From NCBI RefSeq assembly GCF_000341895.1, contig NC_020409.1, positions 3,000,001 to 3,032,000 on the forward strand: a stretch of 32,000 nt of DNA, written 5' to 3'. Under the pieces are notes generated by a model. It searched no databases. It saw only the letters and a program-made list of their open reading frames with translations, and had not been told where the DNA came from. A program made the position numbers and the translations under genes. The stretch is from Pseudodesulfovibrio piezophilus C1TLV30 (lineage in GTDB: Bacteria > Desulfobacterota > Desulfovibrionia > Desulfovibrionales > Desulfovibrionaceae). How positions within the stretch are numbered: position 1 is the stretch's first letter; the number at the start of each line of letters is the position of its first letter. Below are positions 1,474 to 19,340 of the stretch, piece by piece.

Positions 1474-1589
1474 GTTTTCGAAAGGGGCTTCGGATACGGT
1501 CCGGGTGTTCTTGAGAGTGCCGGAGTTTTGCACATCATTGCCAGCCCGGAAAGTTTGCGTTAGGGCCGCTCTCACAAGGAGTTGCTCTC

Positions 1590-2576
1590 ATGAAGTCGAC
1601 CATAACCCCGGCCCGTTTCCGTTTGGTCATTCAAACCGTTTTCGTCGTTTTTAATATTTACGTTGGTATTCGCTTTGCCGCATTTGTGGCCTGGGCCACG
1701 AACAAGACTGATGTCTTTACCCCCAAGCCCGGTGCCGTAGAAGGTTTCTTGCCAATCAGTGCCTTGCTTGGTTTCAGGCAATGGATCACGACTGGGCTCT
1801 GGGATACTGTCCATCCGGCTGGCTTGACGATCTTTTTGGCTTTGCTGGTCATGGCGCTGCTTTTTCGTAAAGGCTTTTGCGGATATATCTGTCCGATTGG
1901 TTTCCTTTCCGGTCTTCTTGACAGGGCAGGGCGGAAGATGGGCCTATCCCGTATCCCGGTCAAATGGGTGGACTATCCACTCCTTTCCGTCAAATATCTG
2001 CTGACAGGGTTTTTCCTTTATACCGTTTTTGTTTCCATGGGGCTTGCTTCGGTCCAGTCTTTTCTCGGCACTCCTTTTAATGTTGTTGCCGATGCCAAAA
2101 TGCTCGCTTTTTTTATGTCGCCCTCTCTTCTTTCGTTGATCATTATCGCCGTGCTCATCATTTTTACGTTGATTTTCAGATACGCATGGTGCCGATACCT
2201 CTGCCCGTATGGCGCGTTGCTCGGTGCCCTCGCCTTTTTCAGCCCCACGACTGTCTCTCGAAATGAAGAGACCTGTATCGACTGCGGGAAATGTACTCGG
2301 GGCTGCCCTGGCGGTATTCGGGTCCAGCAGAAAAAGCATGTGCGATCCCCTGAATGTATCGGGTGCGCCGAGTGTCTCGGTAATTGTCCTGTGGATGGGT
2401 GTCTGAATGTCACGGTTGGCGGACGGTACTCGGTGCCATGGATGATGATAGGCATTGGTGCCGTTGTTACTCTGCTTGCCTTCTGGGGCTGGGCTAGGGC
2501 GACAGGGCATTGGAATGCGGAGATGCCTGCGGCCATGATCAAACGGTTTTATTCGCTGTTCTTCACTGCCGGATAG
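1590..2576 (+). CDS. Membrane-bound 4Fe-4S polyferredoxin, NapH/MauN/NosR-like family.
   Basis: AAGGAG lies upstream of ATG 1590. There are several hydrophobic TM segments. Cys motifs CGYICPIG and CRYLCPYG, plus two ferredoxin-type clusters CIDCGKCTRGCP and CIGCAECLGNCP. Confidence 0.8.
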   Translation: MKSTITPARFRLVIQTVFVVFNIYVGIRFAAFVAWATNKTDVFTPKPGAVEGFLPISALLGFRQWITTGLWDTVHPAGLTIFLALLVMALLFRKGFCGYICPIGFLSGLLDRAGRKMGLSRIPVKWVDYPLLSVKYLLTGFFLYTVFVSMGLASVQSFLGTPFNVVADAKMLAFFMSPSLLSLIIIAVLIIFTLIFRYAWCRYLCPYGALLGALAFFSPTTVSRNEETCIDCGKCTRGCPGGIRVQQKKHVRSPECIGCAECLGNCPVDGCLNVTVGGRYSVPWMMIGIGAVVTLLAFWGWARATGHWNAEMPAAMIKRFYSLFFTAG

Positions 2577-2718
2577 GAAGGAAGAGACATGCAGTGATTC
2601 CGGTTTCTGCCAGGTCGGGATTCATTGCAGGAACCGGGCAAAGCGTGTAAGGAAGCCCGGATAGAAACACATTGCGGGATTGAGGTGTCATTATCGCCCT
2701 TCCCAAGGAGGATATTCC

Positions 2719-3375
2719 ATGTACGTTGGACTGAAAATGCTTCGCGACTTCGTCAAGGTCACCCCGGACACATTGGTCAAGGATGCCCAAAAGCAGCTTG
2801 AAGAGAATAAGCTGTGGATGCTCCTGGTGGTGGACGAAGAGGGCAAGCTGCTCGGCTACGTGCGCAAGGAAGATATCTCCGCCGCTCTGCCAAGCCATAT
2901 TACCTCACTGGAGAAACACGAGATATCTTTTCTCTTGAGCAAGCTGACGGTTGCCCAGATATATCGCACTGATATCAAGACCGTGACCCCGGAGACCGAG
3001 ATCGAGGGTGCGGCAGACATGATGTATGAGATGAACCTGGCCGGTTTGGCCGTGGTGGGGACCGAAGGACAGCTGATCGGCTATATCAATCGAAGTGTAC
3101 TGCTCGACGTACTGGCCGAGGAAATGGGATACCGCGAGGGGGGGAGTCGTTTGGCTCTGGAATGCGAAGACCGCTCAGGTATCCTCTATGAAGTGGCTGG
3201 TGTGATTGCAAATATGAAAATTTCCATTATTTCCACGGGTACATTCTTCTATAAAGGGCGTCGGATCGTCGTGGTTCGTATTGACAGTGACGATACCTCT
3301 GCAGTGGGAGCTGCTTTGACCGAACGTGGATACAAGCTGGTTGCTCCCGAGTCCTTTGCCGAAGAGTGGGCATAG
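2719..3375 (+). CDS. CBS-pair plus C-terminal ACT-like domain protein (AcuB-like).
   Basis: AAGGAGG lies 7 nt upstream of ATG 2719, which I prefer to the longer ORF start at 2680. The translation has two CBS-like repeats (VTPDT...VVDEEGKLLGYV, VTPETE...VVGTEGQLIGYI) followed by an ACT-like segment (LALECEDRSGILYEVAGVIANMKISI). Confidence 0.75.
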   Translation: MYVGLKMLRDFVKVTPDTLVKDAQKQLEENKLWMLLVVDEEGKLLGYVRKEDISAALPSHITSLEKHEISFLLSKLTVAQIYRTDIKTVTPETEIEGAADMMYEMNLAGLAVVGTEGQLIGYINRSVLLDVLAEEMGYREGGSRLALECEDRSGILYEVAGVIANMKISIISTGTFFYKGRRIVVVRIDSDDTSAVGAALTERGYKLVAPESFAEEWA

Positions 3376-3662
3376 TTTTCTCTCATCCATTTTCTTCCTG
3401 CCGGGGGGTATGCGGAAGATTCATTCCTCGGCAGCGCACCATGGCTGCTCTCACTGTCTTCTTGTCTCTGCGGATAGCAAAGTTTTTTCCAGAAGAGTGT
3501 CCATTTTCTCTCGGCAGCAAAGGGTGTCGGGTTTGAGATCGTCATGGACGAATACGGTTCATTGTGTTAGTGCGCTCCGATAAGGTGTCGAGGATTGGTT
3601 TCTCGGTTCTGAAAATTTCGATTAACCCGGCTTATTGGCTGGGGTTGCGGTCCTGATCGGAC

Positions 3663-3696
3663 GGGTCGGTGATGGTTTCACCGGCCCTTCTCTTTT
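3663..3696 (+). terminator. Intrinsic terminator-like hairpin on the plus strand, about 290 nt downstream of the nearest plus-strand gene.
   Basis: GGGTCGGTGA-tggtt-TCACCGGCCC forms 10 bp including one G-U pair. It is followed by TTCTCTTTT. Confidence 0.5.
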
Positions 3697-3711
3697 GGGA
3701 GAAGGATGTTT

Positions 3712-3767
3712 GTCAGTCAAAAGAATCCCCCGGAGACAGATGTTTCCGGGGGATTCTTTTGACTGAC
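3712..3767. terminator. Very long perfect hairpin (23-bp stem) between convergent genes. Probably a bidirectional terminator.
   Basis: GTCAGTCAAAAGAATCCCCCGGA (3712-3734) is the exact reverse complement of TCCGGGGGATTCTTTTGACTGAC (3745-3767). The loop is 10 nt. Confidence 0.55.
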
Positions 3768-3814
3768 GGATTGCATGATGTGCCGTGGCTCATCAGGCTT
3801 TCCACAGGGAGAGT

Positions 3815-4144
3815 TTAGCAGCCGCAACCTGAAGAGCCGCATCCACCGCTGGAGCAATCGCATCCGCCGCCGCCACCGACTTCATTTTCGGAATCAATGG
3901 TGAATCCGTATTGAGTCATGTCAATGGTCACTTTGCCTGTAGCTTCTGCCAGTTCCTCATTGATGAGAAAGGTAAAGCTTTCAAGTTCCACTGATTTGTC
4001 ACCGTCGCGCGGTTCGTCGAGGGCCAGGGAAAGCCGCATGCCGCTGCAACCGCCACCTGCGAGATGAATACGGATGGGAGAGACGGTTTTCCCTTCAAAG
4101 TAAGAGGTCAGTTCCTTTTGTGCTGATTCGGTCACATTGATCAT
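3815..4144 (-). CDS. HesB/IscA-like Fe-S cluster assembly/carrier protein (Cys form) with a Cys/Gly/Ser-rich C-terminal tail.
   Basis: Translation: MINVTESAQKELTSYFEGKTVSPIRIHLAGGGCSGMRLSLALDEP...GGGGGCDCSSGGCGSSGCGC. I prefer the start at 4144 over 4168 because it aligns residue-for-residue with the start of the upstream paralogue. Confidence 0.8.
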   Translation of the reverse strand: MINVTESAQKELTSYFEGKTVSPIRIHLAGGGCSGMRLSLALDEPRDGDKSVELESFTFLINEELAEATGKVTIDMTQYGFTIDSENEVGGGGGCDCSSGGCGSSGCGC

Positions 4145-4205
4145 ACTGGTTCCTTTTTTGGGGTTCATGAAAGATTTATGAACGAGTCCCTATCGGGATG
4201 ACTGA

Positions 4206-4239
4206 TAAAAAAGCGACGCCTTGATAAGAGACGTCGCTT
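4206..4239 (-). terminator. Intrinsic terminator between the two HesB-like genes.
   Basis: On the minus strand, AGCGACG-tctcttatcaagg-CGTCGCT is followed by TTTTTT. Confidence 0.6.
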
Positions 4240-4260
4240 TCGATGACCGTAAACTCAGCC

Positions 4261-4605
4261 TTAGCAGGAGCAGCTTCCAGAGCTGCATCCGCCGCTATCG
4301 GTGCCGCAGCCGCCTGAAGAGCAGCCACCTTCACCGCCGACCGAATTTTCGGATTCAACAACAAAACCGTAGTAGGTCATGTCGATTTTCACTTTACCGG
4401 TCTGGGCTTGAAGTTCTTTGTCGATGAGGAAGGTGAATCCACCAGCCTCGAATACTTCGTCTTTATCATTAGGCTCATCCAGAGCCAGAGTCAGGCGAGG
4501 GCCTGCTCAACCTCCGGCTGCGAGGTACACTCGGACAGGAGATGGCTCCTTGTCCTGGAAATAGCCGTCGAGCTGCTTACCGGCAGCTTCAGTCAATTCA
4601 AACAT
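4261..4605 (-). CDS. HesB/IscA-like selenoprotein candidate. An in-frame TGA (4509..4507) sits at the position of the conserved Cys.
   Basis: AGGAGG (4617..4612) lies 6 nt upstream of ATG 4605. Translation: MFELTEAAGKQLDGYFQDKEPSPVRVYLAAGG-TGA-AGPRLTLALDEPNDKDEVFEAGGFTFLIDKELQAQTGKVKIDMTYYGFVVESENSVGGEGGCSSGGCGTDSGGCSSGSCSC-TAA. It is collinear with the Cys paralogue on both sides of the TGA. The ORF track does not list it. Confidence 0.75.
4472..4506 (-). other. Candidate bacterial SECIS region: two small hairpins within 40 nt 3' of the UGA.
   Basis: The mRNA reads UGA-GAGCAGGC-CCUC-GCCUG(A)CUC, then GGCUC-UGGAU-GAGCC. The second hairpin has a G-containing apical loop about 30 nt after the UGA. 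I folded this by eye only. Confidence 0.4.
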
Positions 4606-4768
4606 TGATAGCCTCCTATAGATGGTCGGGAAAAGAAGAGGTAAGAACTCTATGCGGCTTTGTCAAATCGAAATTCGTACATTTCTTGTGCTGATGTTGA
4701 CCCCCTCTGATTGATGGGATAATTCCTGATATTGCCATCCGGCCAAATTGAAGACGAGGCATGATACG

Positions 4769-5311
4769 ATGAAAGAATGTGGTACCATACTGAATGACAA
4801 GGAAATGAACCGGACACTTGAACGTCTGGCCATAGAAGTCTACGAGCGTCATGGTGAATGTGAGACCCTCGCCATTCTCGGCATACAACGACGCGGTGCC
4901 GATCTGGCTGAGCGGTTGAAAAAACTTCTGGATGATCGGTTGGGACGCAAGGTTCCACTGGGCAAGCTTGATATCAATCTCTATCGGGATGACTGGACAA
5001 CCAACCTTGAATTGACCCCCGTTATCAACTGTTCCGAAATAGGGTTCGAGATAGAAGGTGCGTCCATTGTTCTGGTGGATGACGTACTGTATTCCGGCCG
5101 GACTATCCGGGCGGCGCTGGAAGCTATACTGGACTACGGCCGTCCCAGGCGTGTGGAGCTGCTGGTGATGGTTGACAGGGGGAACAGGGAATTGCCCATT
5201 CAGGCCGATTATGTGGGCAAGAAGGTTGAAACTTCCATGGGCCAGCATGTGAATGTACTGGTCAATGAGCGGGACGATGAGGACCGTGTCTGTCTGGTCG
5301 AGGGCGACTAG
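4769..5311 (+). CDS. pyrR: Bifunctional pyrimidine operon regulator / uracil phosphoribosyltransferase PyrR.
   Basis: The PRPP-binding motif IVLVDDVLYSGRTIRAA is present, and the length of about 180 aa is typical. ATG 4769 with an upstream GAGG is preferred to TTG 4748. Confidence 0.85.
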   Translation: MKECGTILNDKEMNRTLERLAIEVYERHGECETLAILGIQRRGADLAERLKKLLDDRLGRKVPLGKLDINLYRDDWTTNLELTPVINCSEIGFEIEGASIVLVDDVLYSGRTIRAALEAILDYGRPRRVELLVMVDRGNRELPIQADYVGKKVETSMGQHVNVLVNERDDEDRVCLVEGD

Positions 5312-5313
5312 GT

Positions 5314-5850
5314 ATGGCGTTTACTCCTGTTGATCGGGACCCTGTCCCACAGCCTTGTATTACGTTGGTAGGGATGGCTGGTGCCGGAAAAACCACCCTC
5401 GGAGCTATGCTGGCCCGACAACTCGATTGGGGGCAGCTTGATACCGACCTGTATCTTGAATCCTACTACGGGATGCCGCTTCAAACTATTATGGACACCT
5501 ACGGACTTGATGACTTTTTGCGCATCGAGGATCACCTTGTCAGCGAATTGGGACTGACAAGGACAGTTATTTCCACTGGAGGAAGTGTCATCTATGGCAC
5601 CCAGGCCATGGCTCGTTTGAAGGAGCTTGGCAAAGTCGTTTTTCTGGACATTGACGAGACAACATTTCTCAAGCGGGTCGGCGATGGCGAGAATCGCGGC
5701 TTAGCCATTGCTCCAGGTGCCAGTATGAGTGACCTTTACAACGAGCGGCAGCCACTGTACCGTGCCGCCGCCGACATCGTGGTCCGCACCGACAGGGACA
5801 CACCGGAAGCATGTGTGGCCCAGATTCTCGAACACATTGATCTGATATGA
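5314..5850 (+). CDS. aroK: Shikimate kinase family protein.
   Basis: Walker A GMAGAGKTT, followed by the DTD motif, STGGS, and a C-terminal pattern typical of AroK. It starts 3 nt after the pyrR stop. Confidence 0.75.
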   Translation: MAFTPVDRDPVPQPCITLVGMAGAGKTTLGAMLARQLDWGQLDTDLYLESYYGMPLQTIMDTYGLDDFLRIEDHLVSELGLTRTVISTGGSVIYGTQAMARLKELGKVVFLDIDETTFLKRVGDGENRGLAIAPGASMSDLYNERQPLYRAAADIVVRTDRDTPEACVAQILEHIDLI

Positions 5851-6541: not shown

Positions 6542-6575
6542 ACATGGAACAATCTGACGTAAGGTTGTTCCATGT
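6542..6575. promoter_or_regulatory. Perfect 11-bp inverted repeat that includes the annotated start codon of the sensor kinase.
   Basis: ACATGGAACAA (6542-6552), a 12-nt spacer, then TTGTTCCATGT (6565-6575). The ATG at 6572-6574 lies in the right arm and the AAGG lies in the loop. Confidence 0.3.
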
Positions 6576-8518
6576 GTGTACACGAGGGACAGAGTCGGAG
6601 CCGTCCTTGCGGCAGTGTGATGGGTTGGATGACCAGTCTGTTTCTGTTTGCTCTGTCCTGGGTGGTGCTTTTTCCGGCTGTTTCGCCAGCTGCGCCCCTG
6701 GATTCGGTCAGCTTGCAGTTACGCTGGTTTCACCAGTTCCAATTTGCAGGGTACTACACTGCAAAATCAAAAGGTTTTTACCGTGATGTCGGGCTTGATG
6801 TCACGATAATCGAGCGTGATCTCAAAGTGAACCCGGTCCATGCCGTGCAGCAGGGAAATGCTCAATTCGGTGTGACCAATTCCGAGATCCTGCTGCACCG
6901 GATGCGAGGGGAACCGGTGGTCGTCATGGCCGCGATTCTTCAGCACTCGCCGCTTGTCCTGCTCACAACGAAAAAAGACCGCATATCTTCACCCCATGAC
7001 CTGATGGGGAAGCGGGTGCTCATGAGCACCAAGACAATGGATGTCGAATTACTTGGCATGTTACAGAAGGAGCATGTCCCCCTCGGTCGACTGGATATCG
7101 TGGATCGTTTTTCGAGCAGAAATGATTATCTTGATCCCTCGTTCGACGCAGTTGCCGCCTATATCACCAATCAGCCATATTATCTTGAAGAGAAGGGGAT
7201 TGCCTACGGGGTTCTTTACCCTGCCTCTTATGGCGTCGATTTCTATGGAGATTGTCTTTTTACGACAGAAGATCAGGTTCAGAACCATCCAGACAGGGTC
7301 CGGGCATTTCATGAAGCGAGTCTGAGAGGCTGGCAGTATGCGATGGCGCATCCTGATGAAATTATCGATTTGATCATGGCGGACTATGCCCCTCGCAAAA
7401 CAAAGGCGCATCTGGAGTATGAAGCAGCGGCCATCAGGAAGCTGATGCTGCCGGACCTTGTGTCCATAGGCCATATGAATCCCGGCAGGTGGGCATATAT
7501 CGGAGAGGTCTTCAGAAGTCTCGGTCTGACTTCAACGCCTCTCGACATGGGAAGCTTTCTCTATTCACCCAATCCAGTGGGAGATCATGCCGCACTGAAA
7601 AAATTTCTCTATATATTGGGAGTCGTGGCTCTTGTCTTGATGTTGGGGGCCATTTCCCTCGGAGTCTTCAACCGAAAATTGCAGATTCAGGTGCAACAGA
7701 GAACCGAAGCCCTCACTCTCAAGGCACTGGAACTGGAACGTGCCAACCAGCGACTGACCGAACTGGATCGAGTTAAATCGGCTCTGCTGTCGTCTGTTTC
7801 GCATGAGATCAGGACACCCATGACTGCAGTGCTGGGATTTGTGAAGCTTATTGGCAAGGAGTTCAAGAGAACCTTTGCTCCGCTGGCGCATGGCAATGTT
7901 TCACTGGAGAGAAAGCGCGACAGAATCAGCAAAAACCTGAATGTCATTTCCGTCGAGGGAGAAAGACTCACTCGACTTATCTCTGATGTTCTTGATCTTT
8001 CCAAAATCGAGTCAGGGAGCGTTCACTGGCAGGATCAGGATATTGATATGGCAGAGGTTGCCTACAATTCCGTGGCAGTGGTGCAGGAACTGTTTGCCCA
8101 GAATCCGGGAACAAATCTGTTCATGGATGTCCAGGATAACCTGCCTCGGGTTCACGCCGACCCGGACCGTATTATCCAGGTTTTGATCAATCTGCTGGCC
8201 AATGCCGTGAAATTCACCGCATCCGGTGAAGTTCGACTCACCCTTGCTTCGGATGGAGCCGGTCATATCGAGATCGTGGTCAGCGATACTGGCATCGGCA
8301 TCGCTCAGGAAGATGCAGAGGATATCTTTAATATGTTTCATCAGGTCCGGCGGGGTGATACCGTTCGTTTCGGCGAGCAGGGAGCCGGACTTGGGCTGGC
8401 TATCTGCAAGGAAATCGTGGAACATTATGGTGGTTCCATTTTTGTACACTCCGCTCTCGGCCAGGGCAGTCGTTTTACAGTGAGGCTTCCCGCAGTCGTC
8501 CCGAAAACCGAAAACTAG
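6572..8518 (+). CDS. Sensor histidine kinase with an NMT1/THI5-like (ABC substrate-binding-like) periplasmic domain. No cognate regulator is adjacent.
   Basis: Signal/TM segment, periplasmic LQLRWFHQFQFAGYY...-type domain, second TM, coiled coil, HisKA box SHEIRTPMTAV, and HATPase N/G boxes (LLANAVKFT, DTGIGI, GAGLGLAI). The start is uncertain (6572, 6620 or 6629). Confidence 0.85.
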   Translation: MCVHEGQSRSRPCGSVMGWMTSLFLFALSWVVLFPAVSPAAPLDSVSLQLRWFHQFQFAGYYTAKSKGFYRDVGLDVTIIERDLKVNPVHAVQQGNAQFGVTNSEILLHRMRGEPVVVMAAILQHSPLVLLTTKKDRISSPHDLMGKRVLMSTKTMDVELLGMLQKEHVPLGRLDIVDRFSSRNDYLDPSFDAVAAYITNQPYYLEEKGIAYGVLYPASYGVDFYGDCLFTTEDQVQNHPDRVRAFHEASLRGWQYAMAHPDEIIDLIMADYAPRKTKAHLEYEAAAIRKLMLPDLVSIGHMNPGRWAYIGEVFRSLGLTSTPLDMGSFLYSPNPVGDHAALKKFLYILGVVALVLMLGAISLGVFNRKLQIQVQQRTEALTLKALELERANQRLTELDRVKSALLSSVSHEIRTPMTAVLGFVKLIGKEFKRTFAPLAHGNVSLERKRDRISKNLNVISVEGERLTRLISDVLDLSKIESGSVHWQDQDIDMAEVAYNSVAVVQELFAQNPGTNLFMDVQDNLPRVHADPDRIIQVLINLLANAVKFTASGEVRLTLASDGAGHIEIVVSDTGIGIAQEDAEDIFNMFHQVRRGDTVRFGEQGAGLGLAICKEIVEHYGGSIFVHSALGQGSRFTVRLPAVVPKTEN

Positions 8519-8868
8519 ATCGTCTTTGCCAACCCGGCTTTGGCAAAAGTATATTGTCCAGCTTGAAGTAGGGCTATTTCGTTTTCCTTGGCTGCTATCT
8601 GCCGATATTTTTCTTCATCTGGTAATGCCGAATTCCAGACTTTGGAAATCTCACTCTTGACCACCTGCACTCGCTGTTCCAATCGTTCAAGAGAAAAAGT
8701 TCCATTCTTGATCGGTTCGATGGCTGCTTCCCGGAACGCTTGCAGGGCTTCTTCCGAAAATTCAACGACATCGCCGAGCAGACGTTCATTTTCCTCCTGT
8801 GTCATTTCCTTGAGGTGCATCTCAAAGCTGACATCCTCTGAGCGGGCTTCACGTACTTCAACTTGCAT
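8515..8868 (-). CDS. Hypothetical acidic helical protein (117 aa).
   Basis: GGAGGG lies 6 nt upstream of ATG 8868. Its stop codon overlaps the stop of the convergent kinase gene. No family recognised. Confidence 0.5.
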   Translation of the reverse strand: MQVEVREARSEDVSFEMHLKEMTQEENERLLGDVVEFSEEALQAFREAAIEPIKNGTFSLERLEQRVQVVKSEISKVWNSALPDEEKYRQIAAKENEIALLQAGQYTFAKAGLAKTI

Positions 8869-8982
8869 AACCAACCCTCCATGGTGGCTGTGTCCTTATC
8901 TTATCGGTCACCACACGAATTTTCTCTAGGGAGGGTATGGAAGTGAAGGAGTCGATGGGGAATGATTCGGCGGAATCTCCAT

Positions 8983-9017
8983 CATAAGAAAGGCCCTCCC
9001 GATTGTACGGGAGGGCC
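8983..9017 (-). terminator. Intrinsic terminator downstream of the octaheme cytochrome gene.
   Basis: GGCCCTCCCG-attgta-CGGGAGGGCC forms a perfect 10-bp stem. It is followed on the minus strand by TTTCTTAT. Confidence 0.6.
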
Positions 9018-9057
9018 AGGGGGCGAGGTTCGCTATGGAGTGGCGAAAGCCATCGGC

Positions 9058-10419
9058 TTAGTCTGGAGCGGTGGACATGACTGTGGACAATTCTTCGATC
9101 TGGCCGGTTTTCAGGCGATAATCATAGATGGCCTTCATATCCTTGTAGACCTGGAAGACTTGGAAGAAACCATGCCAGTGGGCATAATCCGGGCCGTTCA
9201 TGGCCGTCCCGTGACGGGCGCGACGACCGCAGTGATGCCACAGGAAGTACATCAGCTCCTGGAAACCATCAGTCCACGGATCTTTGCCCAGCAGATTTTT
9301 TTCCTGAAGCACGGTTTTCATTTCGACAGCCTTGTCCCAATACGTATTATACAGGGCAACTGCGTTATCAAGCTGCATACGCTGGCTATTGGTATGCAGG
9401 GTCGAGTGGCAGCTCTTGCAGACCTGGCGCATTTTCTTGTCGCCTTCCATGCCATTACCGCGATCATTTTTGCGAAGTTCGCTGCGAGCATGGACCAGGT
9501 CCCATTTGAGACGCTCGGCCACGTTATGCGTCGTGGTCAATTCGCCTATGCCGGACATGTGGCAGACAGCGCAGGTTGGTGCGTCATAATCTCCAGGTTC
9601 CCAGGTGTCGGGAGCGGCTTCAAAGTTCCATTTTTCACTGTGGGCCTTGTAGATTTGCCCGTGCTTGGACTCTTCGTAGATTTCGATCTGCGGATGATCC
9701 GGACCAAGGTGGCAGGAAGCACAGGCTTCGGGCTTGCGGGCCTCGGATACGGCAAACTGGTGACGTGTATGGCAGACGGTGCAGTTGCCGACACTGCCGT
9801 CTGGATAGCGGGTGCCGACGCCTCCGGGCCAAGTGTCATTAATGGGCTTGTGGTCCGGGCCGAGTTCGACCTGTGTTCCGTGGCACATCTGACACCCGGC
9901 GGCACGGCTTGCACGATTGGGGGCAGAGCCTTTTTCAACGCCAAGGAATTCCGCACCTTCATGATGATACATCAGGCCGATGAATTTGGGGACCTCCAAC
10001 AGGGGACGCCCCGAGTTCATGGCGTGATTCGATTTCAGGAACTGCTCCACTTCGCGCGGATGGCACTTGGAGCAGGTTTTTGAGGAAACCATGGGCGAGG
10101 TGTAAATATTGGTGCCGCGAAGGCCCTCGCACTGGCTGGCCATGGGAGAATCCTTTTCCACGACGTGACAGTCATAGCAGGAGACCGTGGCATGGCCCAT
10201 TTTGCCGTTTTTCCAGTTTTCAACTATGCCGGGTGTCTTCTGGGAGTGACACTCGATGCACGATTTGGCTTCCTTGGTGAAGCCTCGGTGCACCACGAGC
10301 TGCCTCTTCTCGAGATTGACGCCTTCCAATTCGGCTGCGGCCTGTGCCGGTCCAGCCAGCATGAACGTCATGCAGCATATGAATCCGGCGACGAAGATCG
10401 TACCGAAAACTTTTTTCAT
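9058..10419 (-). CDS. hao: Periplasmic octaheme c-type cytochrome, hydroxylamine oxidoreductase (HAO) family. Probably a reductive Hao-like enzyme.
   Basis: Signal peptide ending AQAAA. Eight CxxCH motifs (CIECH, CYDCH, CSKCH, CQMCH, CTVCH, CASCH, CAVCH, CKSCH) and no CxxCK. The segment [30 protein letters not shown] matches my recollection of HAO-family sequences. Confidence 0.75.
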
Positions 10420-11120: not shown

Positions 11121-11136
11121 AACAATAACCATGCCA
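11121..11136 (-). promoter_or_regulatory. Weak sigma-54-type -24/-12 candidate facing the nrfH-like/hao operon.
   Basis: The minus strand reads TGGCATggttaTTGTT. The GG spacing is correct but -12 is GT rather than the consensus GC. It lies about 125 nt upstream of ATG 10998. Confidence 0.25.
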
Positions 11137-11148
11137 TGATGGGGAGAG

Positions 11149-11164
11149 TGGCACTGTTCTTGTT
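11149..11164 (+). promoter_or_regulatory. Weak sigma-54-type -24/-12 candidate facing the kinase/regulator operon.
   Basis: The plus strand reads TGGCACtgttcTTGTT. Again -12 is GT instead of GC. It sits back-to-back with the minus-strand candidate. Confidence 0.2.
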
Positions 11165-11233: not shown

Positions 11234-11294
11234 ATGTCATTTTTTTCTGACATACGTCATATAAAAATGACAGAGTGTCATATAGAGTTGACAT
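11234..11294. promoter_or_regulatory. Cluster of six TGACAT/ATGTCA half-sites, including two inverted-repeat pairs. Candidate regulator binding array.
   Basis: ATGTCA(11234-11239)-N8-TGACAT(11248-11253); CGTCAT (11255-11260); ATGACA(11267-11272)-gag-TGTCAT(11276-11281); TGACAT (11289-11294). Confidence 0.35.
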
Positions 11295-11333
11295 TGTATG
11301 TGGGGCTTTCGGATTCCCGGTTGGGAGGAGAAA

Positions 11334-13628
11334 ATGGACAAGAAGGCGAAATCAAAAATGAATCGGTGGGCATGGCCTCTTGGGTTGGGTGTGGCATGGC
11401 TGATATTTTTGTTGGTTCTGGCTATCTGGTCAGTTCAGTCGGAGCGAGCCCACGTGACGAGCATGGCTGAGCGTGAAGCAAAGGCCTTTTTCCAACAGAT
11501 GGTGGTGACCCGATCCTGGAACGCCGCTCATGGAGGAGTGTATGTTGTCGCGACTCCCGACAATCCGCCCAATCCGTATTTCAAGAGGGAAGACCGGAGC
11601 CTTGAAACCATGCAGGGCATTACACTGACCAAGGTCAACCCGGCTTACATGACACGCCAACTCTCCACCATTGCTCGCTATGAACATGATGTACAGTTCC
11701 ATATCACGAGCCTGGACCCGGTTCGTCCCGCGAATAAGGCTGACGAATGGGAGTCCGTGGCATTGAGGGAGTTCGAACGGGGAGGCAGAGAAAAATTTTC
11801 TTTGGTGGAGACTGGTGGAAAACATTTCTTTCGGTATATGGCTCCGTTGCTGGCAGAAAAAGGCTGTATGCGATGCCATGACGAATACGGGCATAAAGGG
11901 AAACGCCTTCTGGGCGGTATTTCAGTCACCTTTCTGGCCGATCCTCTCATCAATGCCCGCAAGAGTTCCGTGGCCCATACACATTTGGTCTTTTCGTTGA
12001 TTTTTCTCGTGGGTTTTATCGGTATTTGCGGATCCACATATCTGGTGCAGACGAAACGGGCGGAGGCCGAACAGGCCAATCGAACCAAATCCGTTTTTTT
12101 GGCGAATATGAGTCATGACATGAGAACTCCTCTGAATGGCATCATGGGGCTGACGGAATTGATGCAAAAGAAAGGGTTGAGCCAAACTCAATCCCGATAT
12201 GCGGACATGGTCCGCCATTCCGCTTGGACTCTGCTGGAAATAATCACTGATATAACAGATTTTTCTCGGCTGGAATCAGGGCGTCTGGAGCTGACAAAAA
12301 CGGTTTTCGAGATGAAGCAGCTACTGGATGATGCCCTTGCCATTTTTCGGTTTGAATCAGAGAATAAAGGATTGGTGCTTTCTGCCACCGTTTCGCCGGA
12401 TGTTCACCGCCTGCTCAAGGGTGATGCTTTCCGCCTCAAACAAGTTATCACCAACCTGGTAGGCAATGCTGTCAAATTTACCGAGCACGGCATCGTTGCC
12501 GTCAGGGTTTCATCTGGTGGGGAAGTTTCCGAGGTGAATGGCGGCCGTTCCAGGAATGTTCGCGTCTTGGTGGAGGTCAGTGATTCCGGTATCGGTATTC
12601 CGCAAGAGAGGCAGCAGGATATCTTCGAGAGTTTTCGGCAGGTGGATGATTCTTATGCCAAGCATCATGAGGGGTCCGGGCTGGGCTTGGCCATCTGCCG
12701 ACAACTGGTGACCATGATGGGTGGTTCCATCTCTGTCCGTAGTGTCCTTGGCGAAGGAGCGACCTTCTCTTTTGATGTCATCCTCGAAGTGCCGGAGAAA
12801 GGGGAATTTTCCGCGGAGGTATCAGATGCGGAAACAGCTGTGATTTCGTCTGTCCGGCCCCGACGAGTACTGATGGCGGAAGATAACAGTCTCAATCAGA
12901 CCTTTGCCGTGGAAATATTGGAAGAGGCCGGGCATCCGGTGAGTGTGGCTGCGAACGGGTATGAAGTCCTGGAACTTCTCAGGAACAATGAATTTGATAT
13001 TGTTTTCATGGATATTCAAATGCCGGAGATGGACGGTTTGGAAGCGACTCGTTGCATTCGGGCCGGAGAAGCGGGAGAACATGCCAAGCGCGTCCCGATT
13101 GTGGCGGCTACGGCGTTTGCTCTGCCGGGCGATAGGCAGGCATGTCTGGATGCTGGGATGAACGGATTTGTACTCAAGCCATTGACGAGTGAAGATCTGT
13201 TGCAGGCCGTGGTCAAGTATACCGGAATAGCAGGGAAAACAGGAAAGGCAATAGCGGGATCAATGAAAAGGACGACAAAAAAGGTGAAACCAGTTCTCGA
13301 TATGGCTGGAGCACTGGAGCGATTGGGCGGGAGAAAAGGACTTTTCAAAAAGCTGGTTTGCGCATTTCAGGATGATGCACCATCCAAGCTGGCAGATTTG
13401 TCAGATGCCGTCAGGGACGGTCGCATTCAGGACGTCTTGCGGCTGGCCCATGGGATCAAGAATTCTGCAGGCATGATTGAAGCGACCGTATTGTCCAACG
13501 CAGCCTTTGCTCTGGAAATGGCGGCGCGTGAAGATCGTCTCATGGAAATCCCGGAACTTCATGACATACTCGGGCGTGCAGCCGAGGACGTTTTGTTCGC
13601 TTTGCATCAAATTGTGGAGGATATGTAA
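11334..13628 (+). CDS. Hybrid sensor histidine kinase. Domains: periplasmic Tll0287-like/DUF3365 domain with a c-type heme motif, HisKA, HATPase, receiver, HPt.
   Basis: GGAGG lies upstream of ATG 11334. Two TM segments flank a domain with GGVYV...FRYMAPL...GCMRCH (CxxCH at 11865-11879). H-box MSHDMRTPLNGI, G-boxes DSGIGI/GSGLGLAI, receiver segment DIVFMDIQMPEMDG, HPt LAHGIKNSAGMI. Confidence 0.85.
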   Translation: MDKKAKSKMNRWAWPLGLGVAWLIFLLVLAIWSVQSERAHVTSMAEREAKAFFQQMVVTRSWNAAHGGVYVVATPDNPPNPYFKREDRSLETMQGITLTKVNPAYMTRQLSTIARYEHDVQFHITSLDPVRPANKADEWESVALREFERGGREKFSLVETGGKHFFRYMAPLLAEKGCMRCHDEYGHKGKRLLGGISVTFLADPLINARKSSVAHTHLVFSLIFLVGFIGICGSTYLVQTKRAEAEQANRTKSVFLANMSHDMRTPLNGIMGLTELMQKKGLSQTQSRYADMVRHSAWTLLEIITDITDFSRLESGRLELTKTVFEMKQLLDDALAIFRFESENKGLVLSATVSPDVHRLLKGDAFRLKQVITNLVGNAVKFTEHGIVAVRVSSGGEVSEVNGGRSRNVRVLVEVSDSGIGIPQERQQDIFESFRQVDDSYAKHHEGSGLGLAICRQLVTMMGGSISVRSVLGEGATFSFDVILEVPEKGEFSAEVSDAETAVISSVRPRRVLMAEDNSLNQTFAVEILEEAGHPVSVAANGYEVLELLRNNEFDIVFMDIQMPEMDGLEATRCIRAGEAGEHAKRVPIVAATAFALPGDRQACLDAGMNGFVLKPLTSEDLLQAVVKYTGIAGKTGKAIAGSMKRTTKKVKPVLDMAGALERLGGRKGLFKKLVCAFQDDAPSKLADLSDAVRDGRIQDVLRLAHGIKNSAGMIEATVLSNAAFALEMAAREDRLMEIPELHDILGRAAEDVLFALHQIVEDM

Positions 13629-15011
13629 ATGGCTCGTATCCTCCTGATTGATGATGAGCAGATGATGCATGTCCTTTTTGCGGATGTAGTGACAGAGTTA
13701 GGGCATGAATTAACTGTTGCAGGAACATTGGCAGAAGCATGGCCTTTGCTTGAGGCTCTGCAGCATGACGTCATTTTCCTTGATGTTTTATTACCTGACG
13801 GCAATGGTATAGAAGAACTGGATCGGTACAAATCGTTGCCATGGGCACCTGAAGTCATTGTCATTACAAGCTACGGGGAGTCCTCGGGGGCCGCATCTGT
13901 CCTTGAACAAGGCGGTTGGGAGTATTTGACCAAGCCACTGACTGTCGACAAGATTGAACAGTCGGTCAGAGATGTTGTCACCTATCGGGAGCATCGGGTC
14001 GTGTTGCCCGGTGCAGGGAAACGCCCGGTGGGGATTGCCGGGTCAAGCGCCAAGCTTCTCCGGTGTCTGGCAAAAGTGGATGATATTGCCCATACCGATG
14101 TGACGGCCATGATCCATGGTGAGACCGGCACAGGGAAAGAACTGATTGCCCGTGCGGTTCACGATCGAAGCAGGCGGGCCTCCCGGCCTTTCGTGACGCT
14201 CGATTGTGCTTCTCTTTCTCCGACTCTTGTCGCCTCACAACTTTTCGGTCATGTCCGTGGGGCTTACACCGGAGCAGATAGATCGCGTAACGGTGTCATT
14301 GCACAGGCTCACACCGGAACACTCTTTATGGACGAGATAGGTGAATTGCCTCTTGAGATGCAGGCATCCTTTTTGCGGGTATTGGAAACCGGACGATACC
14401 GGCCCGTTGGCAGTCAGGGTGAGCAGGAGTCGGATTTCAGGCTGGTCACGGCGACCAACAGAGACCTGGAGGAAATGTCCAGGCTTGGTTTGTTCCGCAA
14501 TGATTTACTGTATCGACTTCAGGGAGCAACACTGACGCTTCCTCCGCTTCGGGATCGGCTTGAAGATCTTGAATCCATTGTCCGTTTTCACCTTGATAAG
14601 GCCTGCGGTTCATCTGATGGATGTACCAAGGAAATCAGTGAGGAATTCTGGGCAACTCTTCGCGCGTACTCATGGCCCGGAAATGTTCGGGAACTCAAAC
14701 ATGCGGTTCTCCGGGCATTGGGAGCAGCCAAGGACGGGCCTGTCATCTATAGCCGTCATCTTCCAACGCATGTCCGTATCAAAGCCGTCCAGCAGACACT
14801 GGATTCAGGCGAAAGATTGTCGGCTCCGCTCCTCCGATCTGGGCAGAAATTATTCCCCCGCCTCAAGGACTACCGGGATAAGGCCGAGCGGGAATATGTG
14901 AAATTGCTTCTTGAGAAGAGTGGCTGCAACATGAAACAGGCGGCTACCCTTGCCGGAGTCTCTCGGGGGTATCTCTATGAGCTTCTGAAGAAACACGGCG
15001 TGAAACGGTAA
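13629..15011 (+). CDS. Sigma-54-dependent response regulator (NtrC family): receiver, AAA+, Fis-type HTH.
   Basis: The ATG directly follows the kinase stop. Receiver domain; Walker A GETGTGKE; GAYTGA (the GAFTGA sigma-54 contact loop); C-terminal HTH QAATLAGVSRGYLYELLKKHG. Confidence 0.9.
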   Translation: MARILLIDDEQMMHVLFADVVTELGHELTVAGTLAEAWPLLEALQHDVIFLDVLLPDGNGIEELDRYKSLPWAPEVIVITSYGESSGAASVLEQGGWEYLTKPLTVDKIEQSVRDVVTYREHRVVLPGAGKRPVGIAGSSAKLLRCLAKVDDIAHTDVTAMIHGETGTGKELIARAVHDRSRRASRPFVTLDCASLSPTLVASQLFGHVRGAYTGADRSRNGVIAQAHTGTLFMDEIGELPLEMQASFLRVLETGRYRPVGSQGEQESDFRLVTATNRDLEEMSRLGLFRNDLLYRLQGATLTLPPLRDRLEDLESIVRFHLDKACGSSDGCTKEISEEFWATLRAYSWPGNVRELKHAVLRALGAAKDGPVIYSRHLPTHVRIKAVQQTLDSGERLSAPLLRSGQKLFPRLKDYRDKAEREYVKLLLEKSGCNMKQAATLAGVSRGYLYELLKKHGVKR

Positions 15012-15132: not shown

Positions 15133-17421
15133 CTAATGAACCCCCGCCTTGTTTAGATGAGGGACATATTTCCTGTCATCGCCCTGGATATGGTTGACGA
15201 GCCAGTCCTTGAGGAACTCCATGACATCGTTGGTCAGGGCAGCCTTGCCGTTTTTGAATTGGGCTTCAAGTTCGAGAACGGTATTGACGAGCTTCTTGTG
15301 CTTGGCGACATGAGCAATCATGCCGGGGTAATGATGTTCTTCGAAAAGAGCTTCTTCCGTGGCGAAGTGATGGACGGTATATTCCTTCAGCTCTTCGAAA
15401 ATTTGTCCGAGTTTCTGGCTTCCGCGTCCACTTTTCATCGCGGAGTTGAGGTCGTTGACCAGGCCGACGAGCTTTTTGTGCTGACTATCGATTTCACGGA
15501 TGCCGATGACGAAATCATCATTCCATTCCATGAGGTTTGATGATCTGCGAGGAGATGTTCCAGAGGTGCGCAACGCTCGGCCCGGGACTGGGGTTGCCGG
15601 TTCGACTCCCGCTTTGAGTAGGAAGGGAACATATTTTCTGTCCGTGCCCTGGATGTGGTTGACAAGCCAATCCTTGAGGAACTGCATGACGTCGTTGGTC
15701 AGGGCGGCCTTGCCTTCCTTGAACTGTTTTTCGAGTTGGAGCACGGTATCCACCAATTTCTTGTGTTCAGCTTCATGGGCAAGGGTGCCCGGATAATGGT
15801 GTTCCTCGAAAAAGGCTTCTTCCGTGGCAAAATGGTGGACGGTGTATTCCTTCAACTCTTCGAAAATTTGTCCCAGAATCTCCTTGCCCTTGCCAGCTTT
15901 CATGGCTTCATTGAGCTTGTTGACGAGATCAACAAGCTTGTGATGTTGAGTATCTATCTCTTTCAGGCCGAGGACGAAATCACTGTTCCACTCCATGAGA
16001 GAGCCGCTCTTGTGACGGCTGGTTCCTGGAAGGGGAGAACGTCCGGTGTTTCGAGCTCTGCTCCCTGATTTAGGCCGGTCACCTGTCGTTGTCTGCATGT
16101 CGGACCAATTGCGCTGCTCAATGGCTGATATATTGCCATCGCTCATATCCTGAATTATCTCGGCGAGAATCGTGGTGTAGGATGTGACATTATCAATCAT
16201 TCCATGGGATTCTTCCATCCCATTGACTATGAGCGAGGACGTTTCATTGACCTCATCCACGGAGCGGTTGATTTCTTCGCTGGTAGCGGATTGTTCCTCG
16301 GCAGCGGTGGCTATGGCATGGGCCTGGTCCGAACTCAATTCAACAATGCCGACGATGTCCTTGAGGGATGTTTCGGCTTCGGCTGCGAGGGAGCTTGCCT
16401 TTTCCACGGCCTCGGCAGCCTGGGTCATCTCAGTCATGGAGCTGTGAACGCCTCCTTGGATGGCCTGAACAGTGGAGCCGACTTCCTTGGTGGCGTCCAT
16501 GGTCTTCTCTGCCAGTTTTCTGACTTCGTCGGCAACCACCGCAAAGCCCCGTCCAGCCTCACCTGCACGAGCCGCCTCAATAGCCGCATTGAGCGCGAGA
16601 AGATTTGTTTGGTCCGCGATATCCGTAATGACACTCATGATCTTGCCAATATCATCAGCTTGCGTTCCCAGCCCATGGACGCTGTCTTTCATGCGTTGGG
16701 TCAATGCGCTGACAGACGCCACAGCCTCGGCAACCTGGTCGACCACAGCTGCTCCTGAAGTTGCCCGATCCTTGGCTTGGGTCGCTTGAGCCGCAGCTTC
16801 GGAAGCATTGCGTGCCACATCAAGAATGCTGGCATTCATCTGGTCCATGGCAAGCGCGCTTTCTCCGCTCCGGCTGAGTTGCGTGTTGGCTCCTTCGGTC
16901 ACTACGGCGACCTGTTCGGACAAGCCCTCTGTGGCTGCATCAAGAAGATCAGTTAATTCCCTGAGTTTGGTTGCGCCGGAGATCAAGCCCTGTTTCCATT
17001 TGGCCGTTTCCTTGCGGGCTGTTTCCAGTTCATCTCCGGCAGCGGTCAGTTCGTGTCGGGACATGGCGAGTTGATTATCCAGCTCTTCGCACTGGTCGGC
17101 CTTGAGTGTCGCTTCTCCGGCAATGATGTCGATGGCATTTTTAAGCTGGAGGAATTCCCCGGTGCAGTCGCCTTCGTAAGGTGCGCCGTAATTACCGTTG
17201 GCGATACGGGTAGCGTAGCGGATGGTACGCATCAGGGGAAATAGGGCGCTTCGAAAGATTACCAGGGAGATCACAAGAATCAGGATGGAGCCGAGACTCC
17301 CTGCCAGAATCACGGTCAGATTCGTGTTGGAAGCGGAGAAGATTCCTGTCAGGCTGACGATGATCGAAATGACACATATGAAGACAAGGCTGAAAGCCAG
17401 TTTGAGCCGTATGCTATGCAC
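15133..17421 (-). CDS. Methyl-accepting chemotaxis protein (DcrH-like) with two tandem C-terminal hemerythrin domains.
   Basis: Two closely spaced TM helices, a HAMP-like linker, and the MA signalling domain ([37 protein letters not shown]). Two copies follow of LMEWN.DF..G..EID.QH..LV...HF..EE..F....YP......H...V...W...HI...D. The start is uncertain: GTG 17421 with AGGA upstream, or ATG 17577, which would overlap the upstream gene by 62 nt. Confidence 0.85.
15136..15999 (-). repeat. Tandem intragenic duplication encoding the two hemerythrin domains (copies 15601-15999 and 15136-15534, period 465 nt).
   Basis: The two 133-aa units align without gaps. Long identical blocks include [20 protein letters not shown] and [12 protein letters not shown]. 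The DNA copies are clearly similar but diverged. Confidence 0.85.
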
Positions 17422-17515
17422 GATTGATCCTGTAATGCTTTTGCCGTTGAGATGGCATTGATTATCACTACGGGAAGAATACCGGGAGCGGCTTCGGAAT
17501 ACAATCCCTATTTGT

Positions 17516-19340
<1,825 letters not shown>

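Follow-up and report, generated by a model that had tools for sequence, protein, structure and literature searches.

The closest described relative of the system considered here is NrfS/NrfR of Nitratidesulfovibrio (Desulfovibrio) vulgaris Hildenborough (DVU0622/DVU0621; Rajeev et al., 2015, J Bacteriol, as cited in PMC6456213, PMC5701242, and PMC12285233). According to these later accounts and PMC3333781, NrfSR activates the divergent nrfHA operon on nitrite stress, via sigma-54 and validated NrfR sites. A 16-bp NrfR motif, similar to that of LurR (GTCCGCTTTTTCAGAC), has been described (PMC6456213). In this study we analyzed a 32,000-nucleotide stretch of the genome of Pseudodesulfovibrio piezophilus C1TLV30 (NC_020409.1, positions 3,000,001 to 3,032,000; hereafter the window), in which a hybrid sensor histidine kinase and a sigma-54-dependent response regulator are encoded divergently from an operon for two multiheme cytochromes. 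We consider it likely that the pair is an NrfS/NrfR-family system in which a c-type heme in an sCache_heme domain perceives nitrite or nitric oxide (NO), and that it is wired to a reductive Hao-type nitrite/hydroxylamine reductase. The original prediction, made from the sequence alone, had proposed a c-heme periplasmic sensor and an NtrC-type activator that switch the divergent reductase via sigma-54 on an N-oxide or redox signal; this gains computational support from the domain family, the conserved sites and promoter, and the homology to NrfS/NrfR. The novelty that it implied for the design is not borne out: NrfS/NrfR, a characterised regulator, has exactly that design, and the pair belongs to its family.

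The sensor domain family, DUF3365, has been renamed sCache_heme in a 2026 preprint, which reports CxxCH to be conserved in at least 99% of members (PMC12889525). Among its members, a stand-alone protein, chemoreceptors, and one HAMP-only receptor, the partner of a Ser/Thr kinase, have been characterised. With Tll0287 (5B82) and GSU0582/GSU0935 (3B47/3B42) the window kinase shares the single Cache fold, the short CxxCH helix between strands, and Pfam membership. Like the window kinase, the Cache_heme-HAMP NO receptor of P. azotoformans (PMC12889525; bioRxiv 10.64898/2026.05.25.727664) is without an axial cysteine and is fused to transmembrane signalling. The window kinase differs from all of these in its predicted output, in which a hybrid kinase passes phosphate on to a sigma-54 activator whose target operon can be identified.

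The target is comparable to epsilon-Hao, Kuenenia HAOr (Kustc0458, 6H5L), and the Ignicoccus cytochrome 4QO5, with which it shares eight CxxCH motifs and the HAO-family core; it belongs to an uncharacterised Desulfobacterota clade. It has been stated that HAO homologues without the Tyr-heme cross-link (epsilon-Hao, Kuenenia HAOr) reduce nitrite, NO, and hydroxylamine (PMC8042395, citing Haase 2017). No regulator of reductive HAOs is described in the searched literature. The same logic, induction of a periplasmic nitrite reductase by nitrite or NO, is followed by NarXL/NarQP, NsrR, HcpR, NssABC, and NorR (PMC12285233, PMC1274295), but none of these uses a periplasmic, covalently bound heme, and they are unrelated to the window system in sensor chemistry and output. 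NarX/Q need no cofactor to bind nitrate or nitrite; the cytoplasmic factors NsrR and HcpR are of the Fe-S or heme Crp/Fnr type, and NorR is a cytoplasmic bacterial enhancer-binding protein with non-heme iron.

The kinase, the regulator, and their kinship to NrfS/NrfR

The kinase gene (11334..13628, plus strand) encodes a protein of 764 amino acids (aa) and was assigned from its open reading frame (ORF), Pfam architecture, and identity to D. vulgaris NrfS. The ORF spans 11298-13628, with an alternative upstream ATG at 11298. The start at 11334 is likelier because a Shine-Dalgarno sequence (GGAGGAG) lies 5 nt upstream and homologues begin there; the public gene call (P0001, 776 aa) starts from the ATG at 11298. 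Pfam domains follow in the order Tll0287-like (PF11845), HisKA, HATPase_c, Response_reg, and Hpt. Two transmembrane (TM) helices were detected by hydropathy. TM helix 1 lies at about aa 11-37 (11364..11444; Kyte-Doolittle 19-residue window above 1.6) and is part of a long helix in an AlphaFold2 model; TM helix 2 lies at about aa 211-240 (11964..12053), where a model helix of residues 203-263 runs unbroken into the DHp region. HisKA (aa 252-316) and HATPase_c (aa 363-482) occupy 12087..12779, with the H-box SHDMRTP at 12111-12131, and are followed by the receiver domain (REC; aa 512-626, 12867..13211) and the histidine phosphotransfer (HPt) domain (aa 674-746, 13353..13571), a region that also aligns with the C-terminus of D. 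vulgaris NrfS. Pfam and hydropathy thus agree with the originally proposed two-TM hybrid kinase with receiver and HPt, at the coordinates given for it. TorS, BarA, and ArcB were ruled out as identities of the kinase, as NCBIfam equivalog scores were far under their cutoffs.

The regulator ORF (13629..15011, plus strand) begins at the first base past the kinase stop codon. The protein comprises REC (aa 4-113), AAA+ (aa 136-302; Sigma54_activat, E 1.7e-60), AAA lid, and a C-terminal helix-turn-helix, the last aligning with that of NrfR. Pfam and the GAYTGA loop in the AAA+ domain (14259-14276) are in accord with the expectation of an NtrC-type activator, with this loop intact, directly after the kinase. 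The assignment as NtrC-type applies at the family level only, with NtrC, AtoC, and ZraR NCBIfam matches all under their equivalog cutoffs; scores far under the cutoffs rule out NorR, NtrC, AtoC, and ZraR as identities.

The D. vulgaris kinase used for comparison (P0129) is 832 aa long and carries PF11845, HisKA, HATPase, and REC. Its locus has the order nrfA (524 aa), nrfH (159 aa), divergent kinase, sigma-54 response regulator, and second sigma-54 activator; because this order agrees with DVU0625, DVU0624, DVU0622, DVU0621, and DVU0619, P0129 was taken to be NrfS. Aligned with P0129 by BLASTP, the window kinase shows 37% identity across aa 32-759 (E 3e-146, 95% of length), a stretch that includes the C-terminal HPt region, and the window regulator is 49% identical over its full length (460 aa) to the regulator adjoining D. 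vulgaris NrfS. The two systems share a kinase with two TM helices, periplasmic PF11845, HisKA, HATPase, REC, and a C-terminal HPt-like region; an adjacent sigma-54 regulator; and a divergent operon that starts with an NrfH-type gene and has GTC-N10-GAC sites about 90-100 bp from a -24/-12 promoter. They differ in the catalytic target, which is an octaheme Hao-family protein in the window and pentaheme NrfA (CxxCK) in D. vulgaris. Apart from this absence of a CxxCK pentaheme NrfA, the sequence features of NrfSR systems that were compared were all found at the window. Smaller differences are the length of the NrfH-like partner (189 aa in the window, 159 aa in D. vulgaris), the activator loop (GAYTGA versus GAFTGA), and the length of the kinase (764 versus 832 aa), which is without the low-complexity linkers of the Nitratidesulfovibrio proteins.

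In a neighbor-joining distance tree, drawn without support values, the window kinase grouped with P0010 and P0023 (nrfHA-linked) and P0003 (hao-linked), with the D. vulgaris/Bilophila clade nearby and the non-nrf DUF3365 kinases outside; hao-linked and nrfHA-linked kinases were interleaved. By its domain content, D. vulgaris NrfS is itself an sCache_heme kinase, with the window pair in the same family. No paper in the searched literature, which did not cover Rajeev et al. (2015), links NrfS to DUF3365, Tll0287, or Cache_heme. The pair is thus a variant of the known NrfS/NrfR system and not a regulator of a new kind; only its target is unusual.

The periplasmic sensor domain

The sCache_heme domain (Tll0287-like/DUF3365, PF11845; 11454..11894, plus strand) was matched by Pfam at aa 41-187 with 73.6 bits (E 2.9e-20, cutoff 24.1). 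Lying between the two hydrophobic segments, it is predicted to be extracytoplasmic, as c-type heme attachment requires. It contains the motifs GGVYV (11532-11546), NPAYMTRQ (11637..11660), and FRYMAPL (11829-11849), followed by the CMRCH heme c attachment motif (11865..11879; C178, C181, H182), which aligns with CQSCH of GSU0582. The motif is invariant in alignment A1: C178, C181, and H182 were unchanged in all 15 aligned homologues. Since CxxCH was also present within the first 400 residues of 118 of the 120 best homologues, its occurrence in the kinase is not due to chance. The 15-homologue alignment contained 52 invariant columns across hao-, nrfHA-, and nap-linked kinases, mostly in the sensor region. 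Within NPAYMTRQ, N102-R108 are invariant and Q109 is nearly so. Residues that might line a distal heme pocket are M106 (invariant), Y105, and the nearly invariant H66 and M169.

In an AlphaFold2 model of kinase aa 1-269 (mean predicted local distance difference test score 85), a mixed alpha/beta domain is flanked by long N- and C-terminal helices, the latter running into the DHp region. A short helix bearing CxxCH (residues 179-185) is inserted between strands 163-173 and 192-201, an arrangement that has been described as a feature of sCache_heme (PMC12889525). In a Foldseek search against the PDB, Tll0287 (5B82) ranked second (E 1.2e-4, TM-score 0.58 on target), GSU0935 (3B42) fourth and fifth, and GSU0582 (3B47) seventh, so that the best domain-level matches were the three solved c-heme periplasmic sensors; the Cache sensors CitA, DcuS, and PctA ranked after these. 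A sequence-only search of the PDB with the sensor domain returned just a marginal match to GSU0582 (E 0.065-0.16). Pfam, the invariant CxxCH, and the predicted fold all agree with the Tll0287-like domain with CMRCH between two TM helices that had been read from the sequence. The domain is predicted to bind a single heme c covalently via C178/C181, with H182 serving as proximal ligand and without an axial cysteine.

The main rival to ligand sensing is redox sensing. The kinase heme c would then report redox state (periplasmic or menaquinol-pool potential, sulfide, O2 exposure), with no N-oxide bound, and the reductase would be turned on when the electron-acceptor balance shifts. In discussions of the founding members Tll0287 and GSU0582/GSU0935, a redox or unknown sensor role was considered, His/Cys-ligated stand-alone members act as redox proteins (PMC12889525), and the kinase sequence cannot tell ligand from redox sensing. 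The only cysteines before TM helix 2 are C178 and C181, however, and the subfamily is without a conserved extra cysteine; the axial cysteine of the Tll0287 subtype (His/Cys-ligated, redox type) is thus absent from the window kinase. The sensor domain is therefore assigned to the signalling type, not to the His/Cys redox type, and it resembles the NO-binding signalling cluster. For a signalling-type sCache_heme protein without axial cysteine, tight NO binding, an H-NOX-like off-rate, and no stable O2 complex have been reported (PMC12889525). The homologous D. vulgaris NrfSR responds to added nitrite, as reported in PMC6456213, and the gene neighbourhoods are all those of N-oxide reductases (nrfHA, hao, nap). 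With these points against it we regard redox sensing as unlikely.

A second Tll0287-like (c-heme Cache) protein, fused to GGDEF, is encoded 3.6 kb downstream of the nrfSR pair in two related records (L085 11925-13217 and L086 9561-10853, both plus strand); these genomes thus hold several heme-Cache sensors with differing outputs.

The predicted target operon

As originally proposed, the pair is divergent from a multiheme reductase operon, which consists of an nrfH-like gene (10998-10429) and a hao-like gene (10419-9058), both on the minus strand. The first gene encodes an NrfH/NapC-type membrane tetraheme quinol dehydrogenase of 189 aa with four CxxCH motifs (PF03264, E 1.3e-30); its match to TIGR03153 (NrfH) was under the cutoff of that model. 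The second encodes a 453-aa octaheme cytochrome of the Hao family, with eight CxxCH motifs and no CxxCK, that matched PF13447 (HAO family) and did not match PF02335 above cutoff. A strong, intrinsic-terminator-like hairpin (8992..9017, minus strand) with a 10-bp stem, nine G-C pairs, and a T-rich tail ends the operon.

The nearest solved relative of the Hao-like protein is the octaheme cytochrome of Ignicoccus hospitalis (4QO5, E 1e-43), and the HAO structures of Nitrosomonas and anammox bacteria rank next. Eight heme motifs, the HAO-core profile, and a partner gene of the NrfH/NapC type are the marks of reductive HAOs, and all three were found. At about 450 aa, the protein is also some 100 residues shorter than the oxidative HAO of Nitrosomonas, a difference that is suggestive only. 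We predict that it is a reductive nitrite/hydroxylamine reductase. Homologues 60-90% identical to it occur across the Desulfobacterota. The public names of several of them (P0192, P0205, P0245, P0281, P0283, P0299) look like propagated misannotations; several are called 'beta-ketoacyl-ACP synthase' and one 'cytochrome c nitrite reductase subunit c552'.

Related loci and exchange of the catalytic cassette

Related kinases were found beside three kinds of operon. A hao-like/nrfH-like pair is present in Pseudodesulfovibrio sp. zrk46 (L001; kinase 66% identical to that of the window, Hao 87%) and in a metagenomic relative (L087/88, P0027; kinase 48%), in which a napC-MADGH-like operon lies immediately downstream. 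The partner is nrfHA in L085/86 (P0010; kinase 66%), L084 (P0023; 59%), D. mangrovi (L003; 43%), and N. termitidis (L002), N. vulgaris (L090), and Bilophila (L010/12/21), all at 34-38%. In Solidesulfovibrio sp. C21 (L089; 42%) it is nap, which the system follows directly. The pair is kept beside N-oxide reductase operons; the hao target recurs in L001 and L087/88, the others having nrfHA or nap. The adjoining nap operons of L087/88 and L089 fit an N-oxide respiratory role.

L085 and the window are collinear on both sides of the catalytic genes. On the left flank, a histidine kinase with an NMT1/THI5-like periplasmic binding domain (window 6572-8518, plus strand) is 62% identical, and a 119-aa ORF without a Pfam family (window 8515-8874, minus strand) has a 117-aa counterpart 64% identical. 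On the right flank, in the same collinearity comparison, the kinase is 73% and the regulator 76% identical. Between these flanks L085 has a methyltransferase gene, nrfA, and nrfH, and the window has hao and the nrfH-like gene. At this orthologous locus, the catalytic cassette has therefore been swapped while sensor, regulator, sites, and promoter stayed the same; the NMT1/THI5-like kinase and the small ORF define its left edge. The sensor residues are constant whatever the target, which speaks for a shared stimulus and for Hao-like protein and NrfA being functionally equivalent.

Several observations were made on the cassettes themselves. In L001, a block of ArsR/ArsP, thioredoxin, DsbD, and methyltransferase genes (1483-5637) lies between the 117-aa ORF and hao, where the window has only 183 bp (8874-9058), and the region adjacent to the cassette is therefore an insertion/deletion hotspot. 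The nrfH gene upstream of nrfA is uncalled in the public records of L085 (5109-5645, minus strand) and L086 (2745-3281, minus strand); it was found by BLAST with NrfH, and two small ORFs on the opposite strand (52 and 92 aa) are called in its place. D. mangrovi has both nrfHA and, 6.5 kb away, a second nrfH-like/hao-like pair, both within 7 kb (L003 1-1351 and 5666-7703, minus strand). No GTC-N10-GAC site was seen in the 190 bp upstream of its hao-like pair.

A scan with the patterns NPAYMTRQ and F[LI]ANMSHD returned at least 570 DUF3365 kinases from many phyla among the matches listed; of the loci examined, three, from Bilophila, were nrfHA-linked. No nrf or hao neighbours were seen at 77 loci outside the Desulfovibrionales with related DUF3365 kinases, again among the matches listed, and the linkage is therefore specific to the Desulfovibrionales and not a property of the domain. 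When metagenomes were scanned with the whole kinase, the matches were overwhelmingly generic hybrid kinases recognised by the receiver motif, none with nrf or hao neighbours.

Regulatory DNA between the operons

The intergenic region between the kinase and the nrfH-like gene is 335 bp long. It contains three 16-bp GTC-N10-GAC inverted repeats (11236..11292; GTCATTTTTTTCTGAC, GTCATATAAAAATGAC, GTCATATAGAGTTGAC), a predicted NrfR-type enhancer that resembles the LurR/NrfR motif class. The repeats begin at 11236, 11256, and 11277, 20-21 bp or about two helical turns apart. They are the only matches to GTCAT-N7-TGAC in the 32-kb window, where 0.29 would be expected by chance. A predicted sigma-54 -24/-12 promoter directed toward the nrfH-like gene (TGGCATGGTTATTGTT; 11121..11136, minus strand) lies about 100 bp from the repeats.

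The target-operon strand carried a -24/-12-like element at all 12 loci scanned (hao-linked: the window, L001, L087/88; nrfHA-linked: L002, L003, L084, L085, L010, L012, L021; nap-linked: L089), with a pattern whose chance expectation was about 0.005 per region and strand. At L089 the promoter faces nap. Clusters of one to three GTC-N10-GAC sites accompany the element at a spacing of 92-119 bp where this was worked out. The D. vulgaris locus (L090), read by eye and apart from the 12, has two GTC-N10-GAC sites and a CGGCAC-N5-TTGT element about 90 bp away. The minus-strand promoter was accepted because its position is conserved among the loci, not for its consensus score. The layout has the canonical geometry of a putative enhancer and sigma-54 promoter aimed at the reductase operon.

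A second sigma-54-like element (TGGCACTGTTCTTGTT, TGGCAC-N5-TTGTT; 11149-11164, plus strand), differing from the consensus at one position, is oriented toward the kinase gene and stands back-to-back with the minus-strand one. A weaker counterpart is present in L087/88. The plus-strand element was ruled out as the primary promoter on two grounds: such a promoter would have the three regulator sites on its downstream side, and neither L001 nor the nrfHA-linked loci have the element.

It could be argued that the adjacency of the pair and the reductase operon is a historical relic. In that case the pair would mainly control operons elsewhere (nap or others), or itself via 11149-11164, and the hao-like operon would be under another regulator, for example an HcpR-type Crp/Fnr protein. 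Further NrfR targets have been reported, namely nap for D. desulfuricans and por for D. vulgaris (PMC5701242, PMC6456213); in other genera, Hao-like operons occur without this system, one of them beside a Crp/Fnr regulator; and the plus-strand element of the window recurs, if weakly, in L087/88. We give this explanation little credence, since three sites and a -24/-12 element stand at canonical distance before the nrfH-like gene, with no further site of this kind in the window. The layout recurs in three independent hao-linked loci with kinases that share only 48-66% identity, and the plus-strand element is restricted as described above.

Proposed mechanism and points against it

We propose the following mechanism for an NrfS/NrfR-family nitrite or NO sensor that controls a Hao-type reductase. 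The kinase would expose a single periplasmic Cache domain with heme c attached at C178/C181. A nitrite-derived ligand, most likely NO or nitrite itself, would bind at or perturb the heme, and the signal would travel via TM helix 2 to the DHp domain. A phosphorelay may then run from His261 to the receiver Asp of the kinase, the HPt His, and the Asp of the translationally coupled NrfR-like activator. The phosphorylated regulator would oligomerise on the three GTC-N10-GAC sites at 11236-11292 and, through DNA looping and with ATP hydrolysis, open the sigma-54 promoter (11136-11121). Transcription of the nrfH-like/hao-like operon (10998-9058) would stop at the hairpin (9017-8992). The products of the operon, a membrane tetraheme quinol dehydrogenase and a periplasmic octaheme Hao-type enzyme, would then remove nitrite (and hydroxylamine/NO), giving ammonium, in place of NrfH/NrfA.

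It is very improbable that the Hao-like enzyme acts instead on sulfite, polysulfide, another oxyanion, or an extracellular acceptor that the system would sense. In favour of such a substrate, multiheme cytochromes are promiscuous, the activity of this Desulfobacterota clade is uncharacterised, and D. vulgaris NrfA also reduces sulfite (PMC3333781). Against it, the hao-like gene takes the place of nrfHA at an orthologous locus, where the sensor system keeps the same set of conserved residues; it adjoins nap in L087/88 and hcp genes in Desulfoluna, and related HAOs without the Tyr cross-link are said in PMC8042395 to reduce nitrite and hydroxylamine.

Several points weigh against nitrite or NO sensing coupled to a Hao-type reductase. 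The support in this organism is purely computational. In Desulfovibrio, the stimulus of NrfS, nitrate or nitrite, is still to be established (PMC5701242), and the evidence for NO binding comes from one distant HAMP-only Pseudomonas receptor, described in a preprint only (PMC12889525). Local alignments of the Hao-like protein with Nitrosomonas HAO end before the C-terminal Tyr region. The -24/-12 consensus alone is not above chance (15 two-mismatch matches in the window, 17 expected), and the minus-strand element has TTGT, not TTGC, at -12, a form also seen in the sigma-54 promoter of D. vulgaris por, ATTGGCACATTTCTTGTTA (PMC6456213). The plus-strand element could mean autoregulation of the kinase operon, instead of or besides activation of the reductase. 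The Hao-like operon lies apart from the sensor system in Maridesulfovibrio hydrothermalis and Desulfoluna spongiiphila; in the latter (L172 6251-15040) the nrfH-like/hao-like pair lies beside a Crp/Fnr-type regulator and two hcp (Prismane) genes. This arrangement suggests HcpR-type control of the same enzyme in another lineage, in surroundings that are again those of N-oxide stress.

A broader interpretation, for which we judge the chances to be slightly below even, extends to the whole family. NrfS would sense nitrite-derived NO, or nitrite itself, with a periplasmic c-heme Cache domain, would so supply the signal perception missing for NrfSR, and would be the first sCache_heme histidine kinase with a defined physiological output. 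The NrfSR unit would be a portable controller whose cassette is exchanged among NrfHA, Hao-type, and Nap systems, and the Hao-like proteins of Desulfobacterota would be true respiratory or detoxifying nitrite reductases.

A neighbouring chemoreceptor

Convergent with the regulator gene, an 814-aa methyl-accepting chemotaxis protein is encoded at 15133-17577 (minus strand). Pfam matched a HAMP domain, an MCP signalling domain, and two C-terminal hemerythrin domains. The protein is a cytoplasmic di-iron chemoreceptor of the O2/NO-sensor type adjoining the N-oxide module.

Implications

The known picture of how such systems work is unchanged by these findings, and what is new is modest. A member of the NrfSR family has a Hao-type probable target instead of NrfA, with the exchange documented at one locus, and NrfS, including the D. 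vulgaris protein, carries a c-heme Cache domain. The latter provides a testable hypothesis of how nitrite stress is sensed in Desulfovibrio, where the stimulus has been listed as open (PMC5701242). Hao-like genes are plentiful in anoxic sediments and mats and are often misannotated; for the widespread, uncharacterised Hao-like clade of sulfate reducers, a probable regulator now points to a probable role in the reduction of nitrite, NO, or hydroxylamine. The swap of nrfHA for hao under one conserved regulator is a natural experiment, and it argues for the functional equivalence of the two enzyme types.

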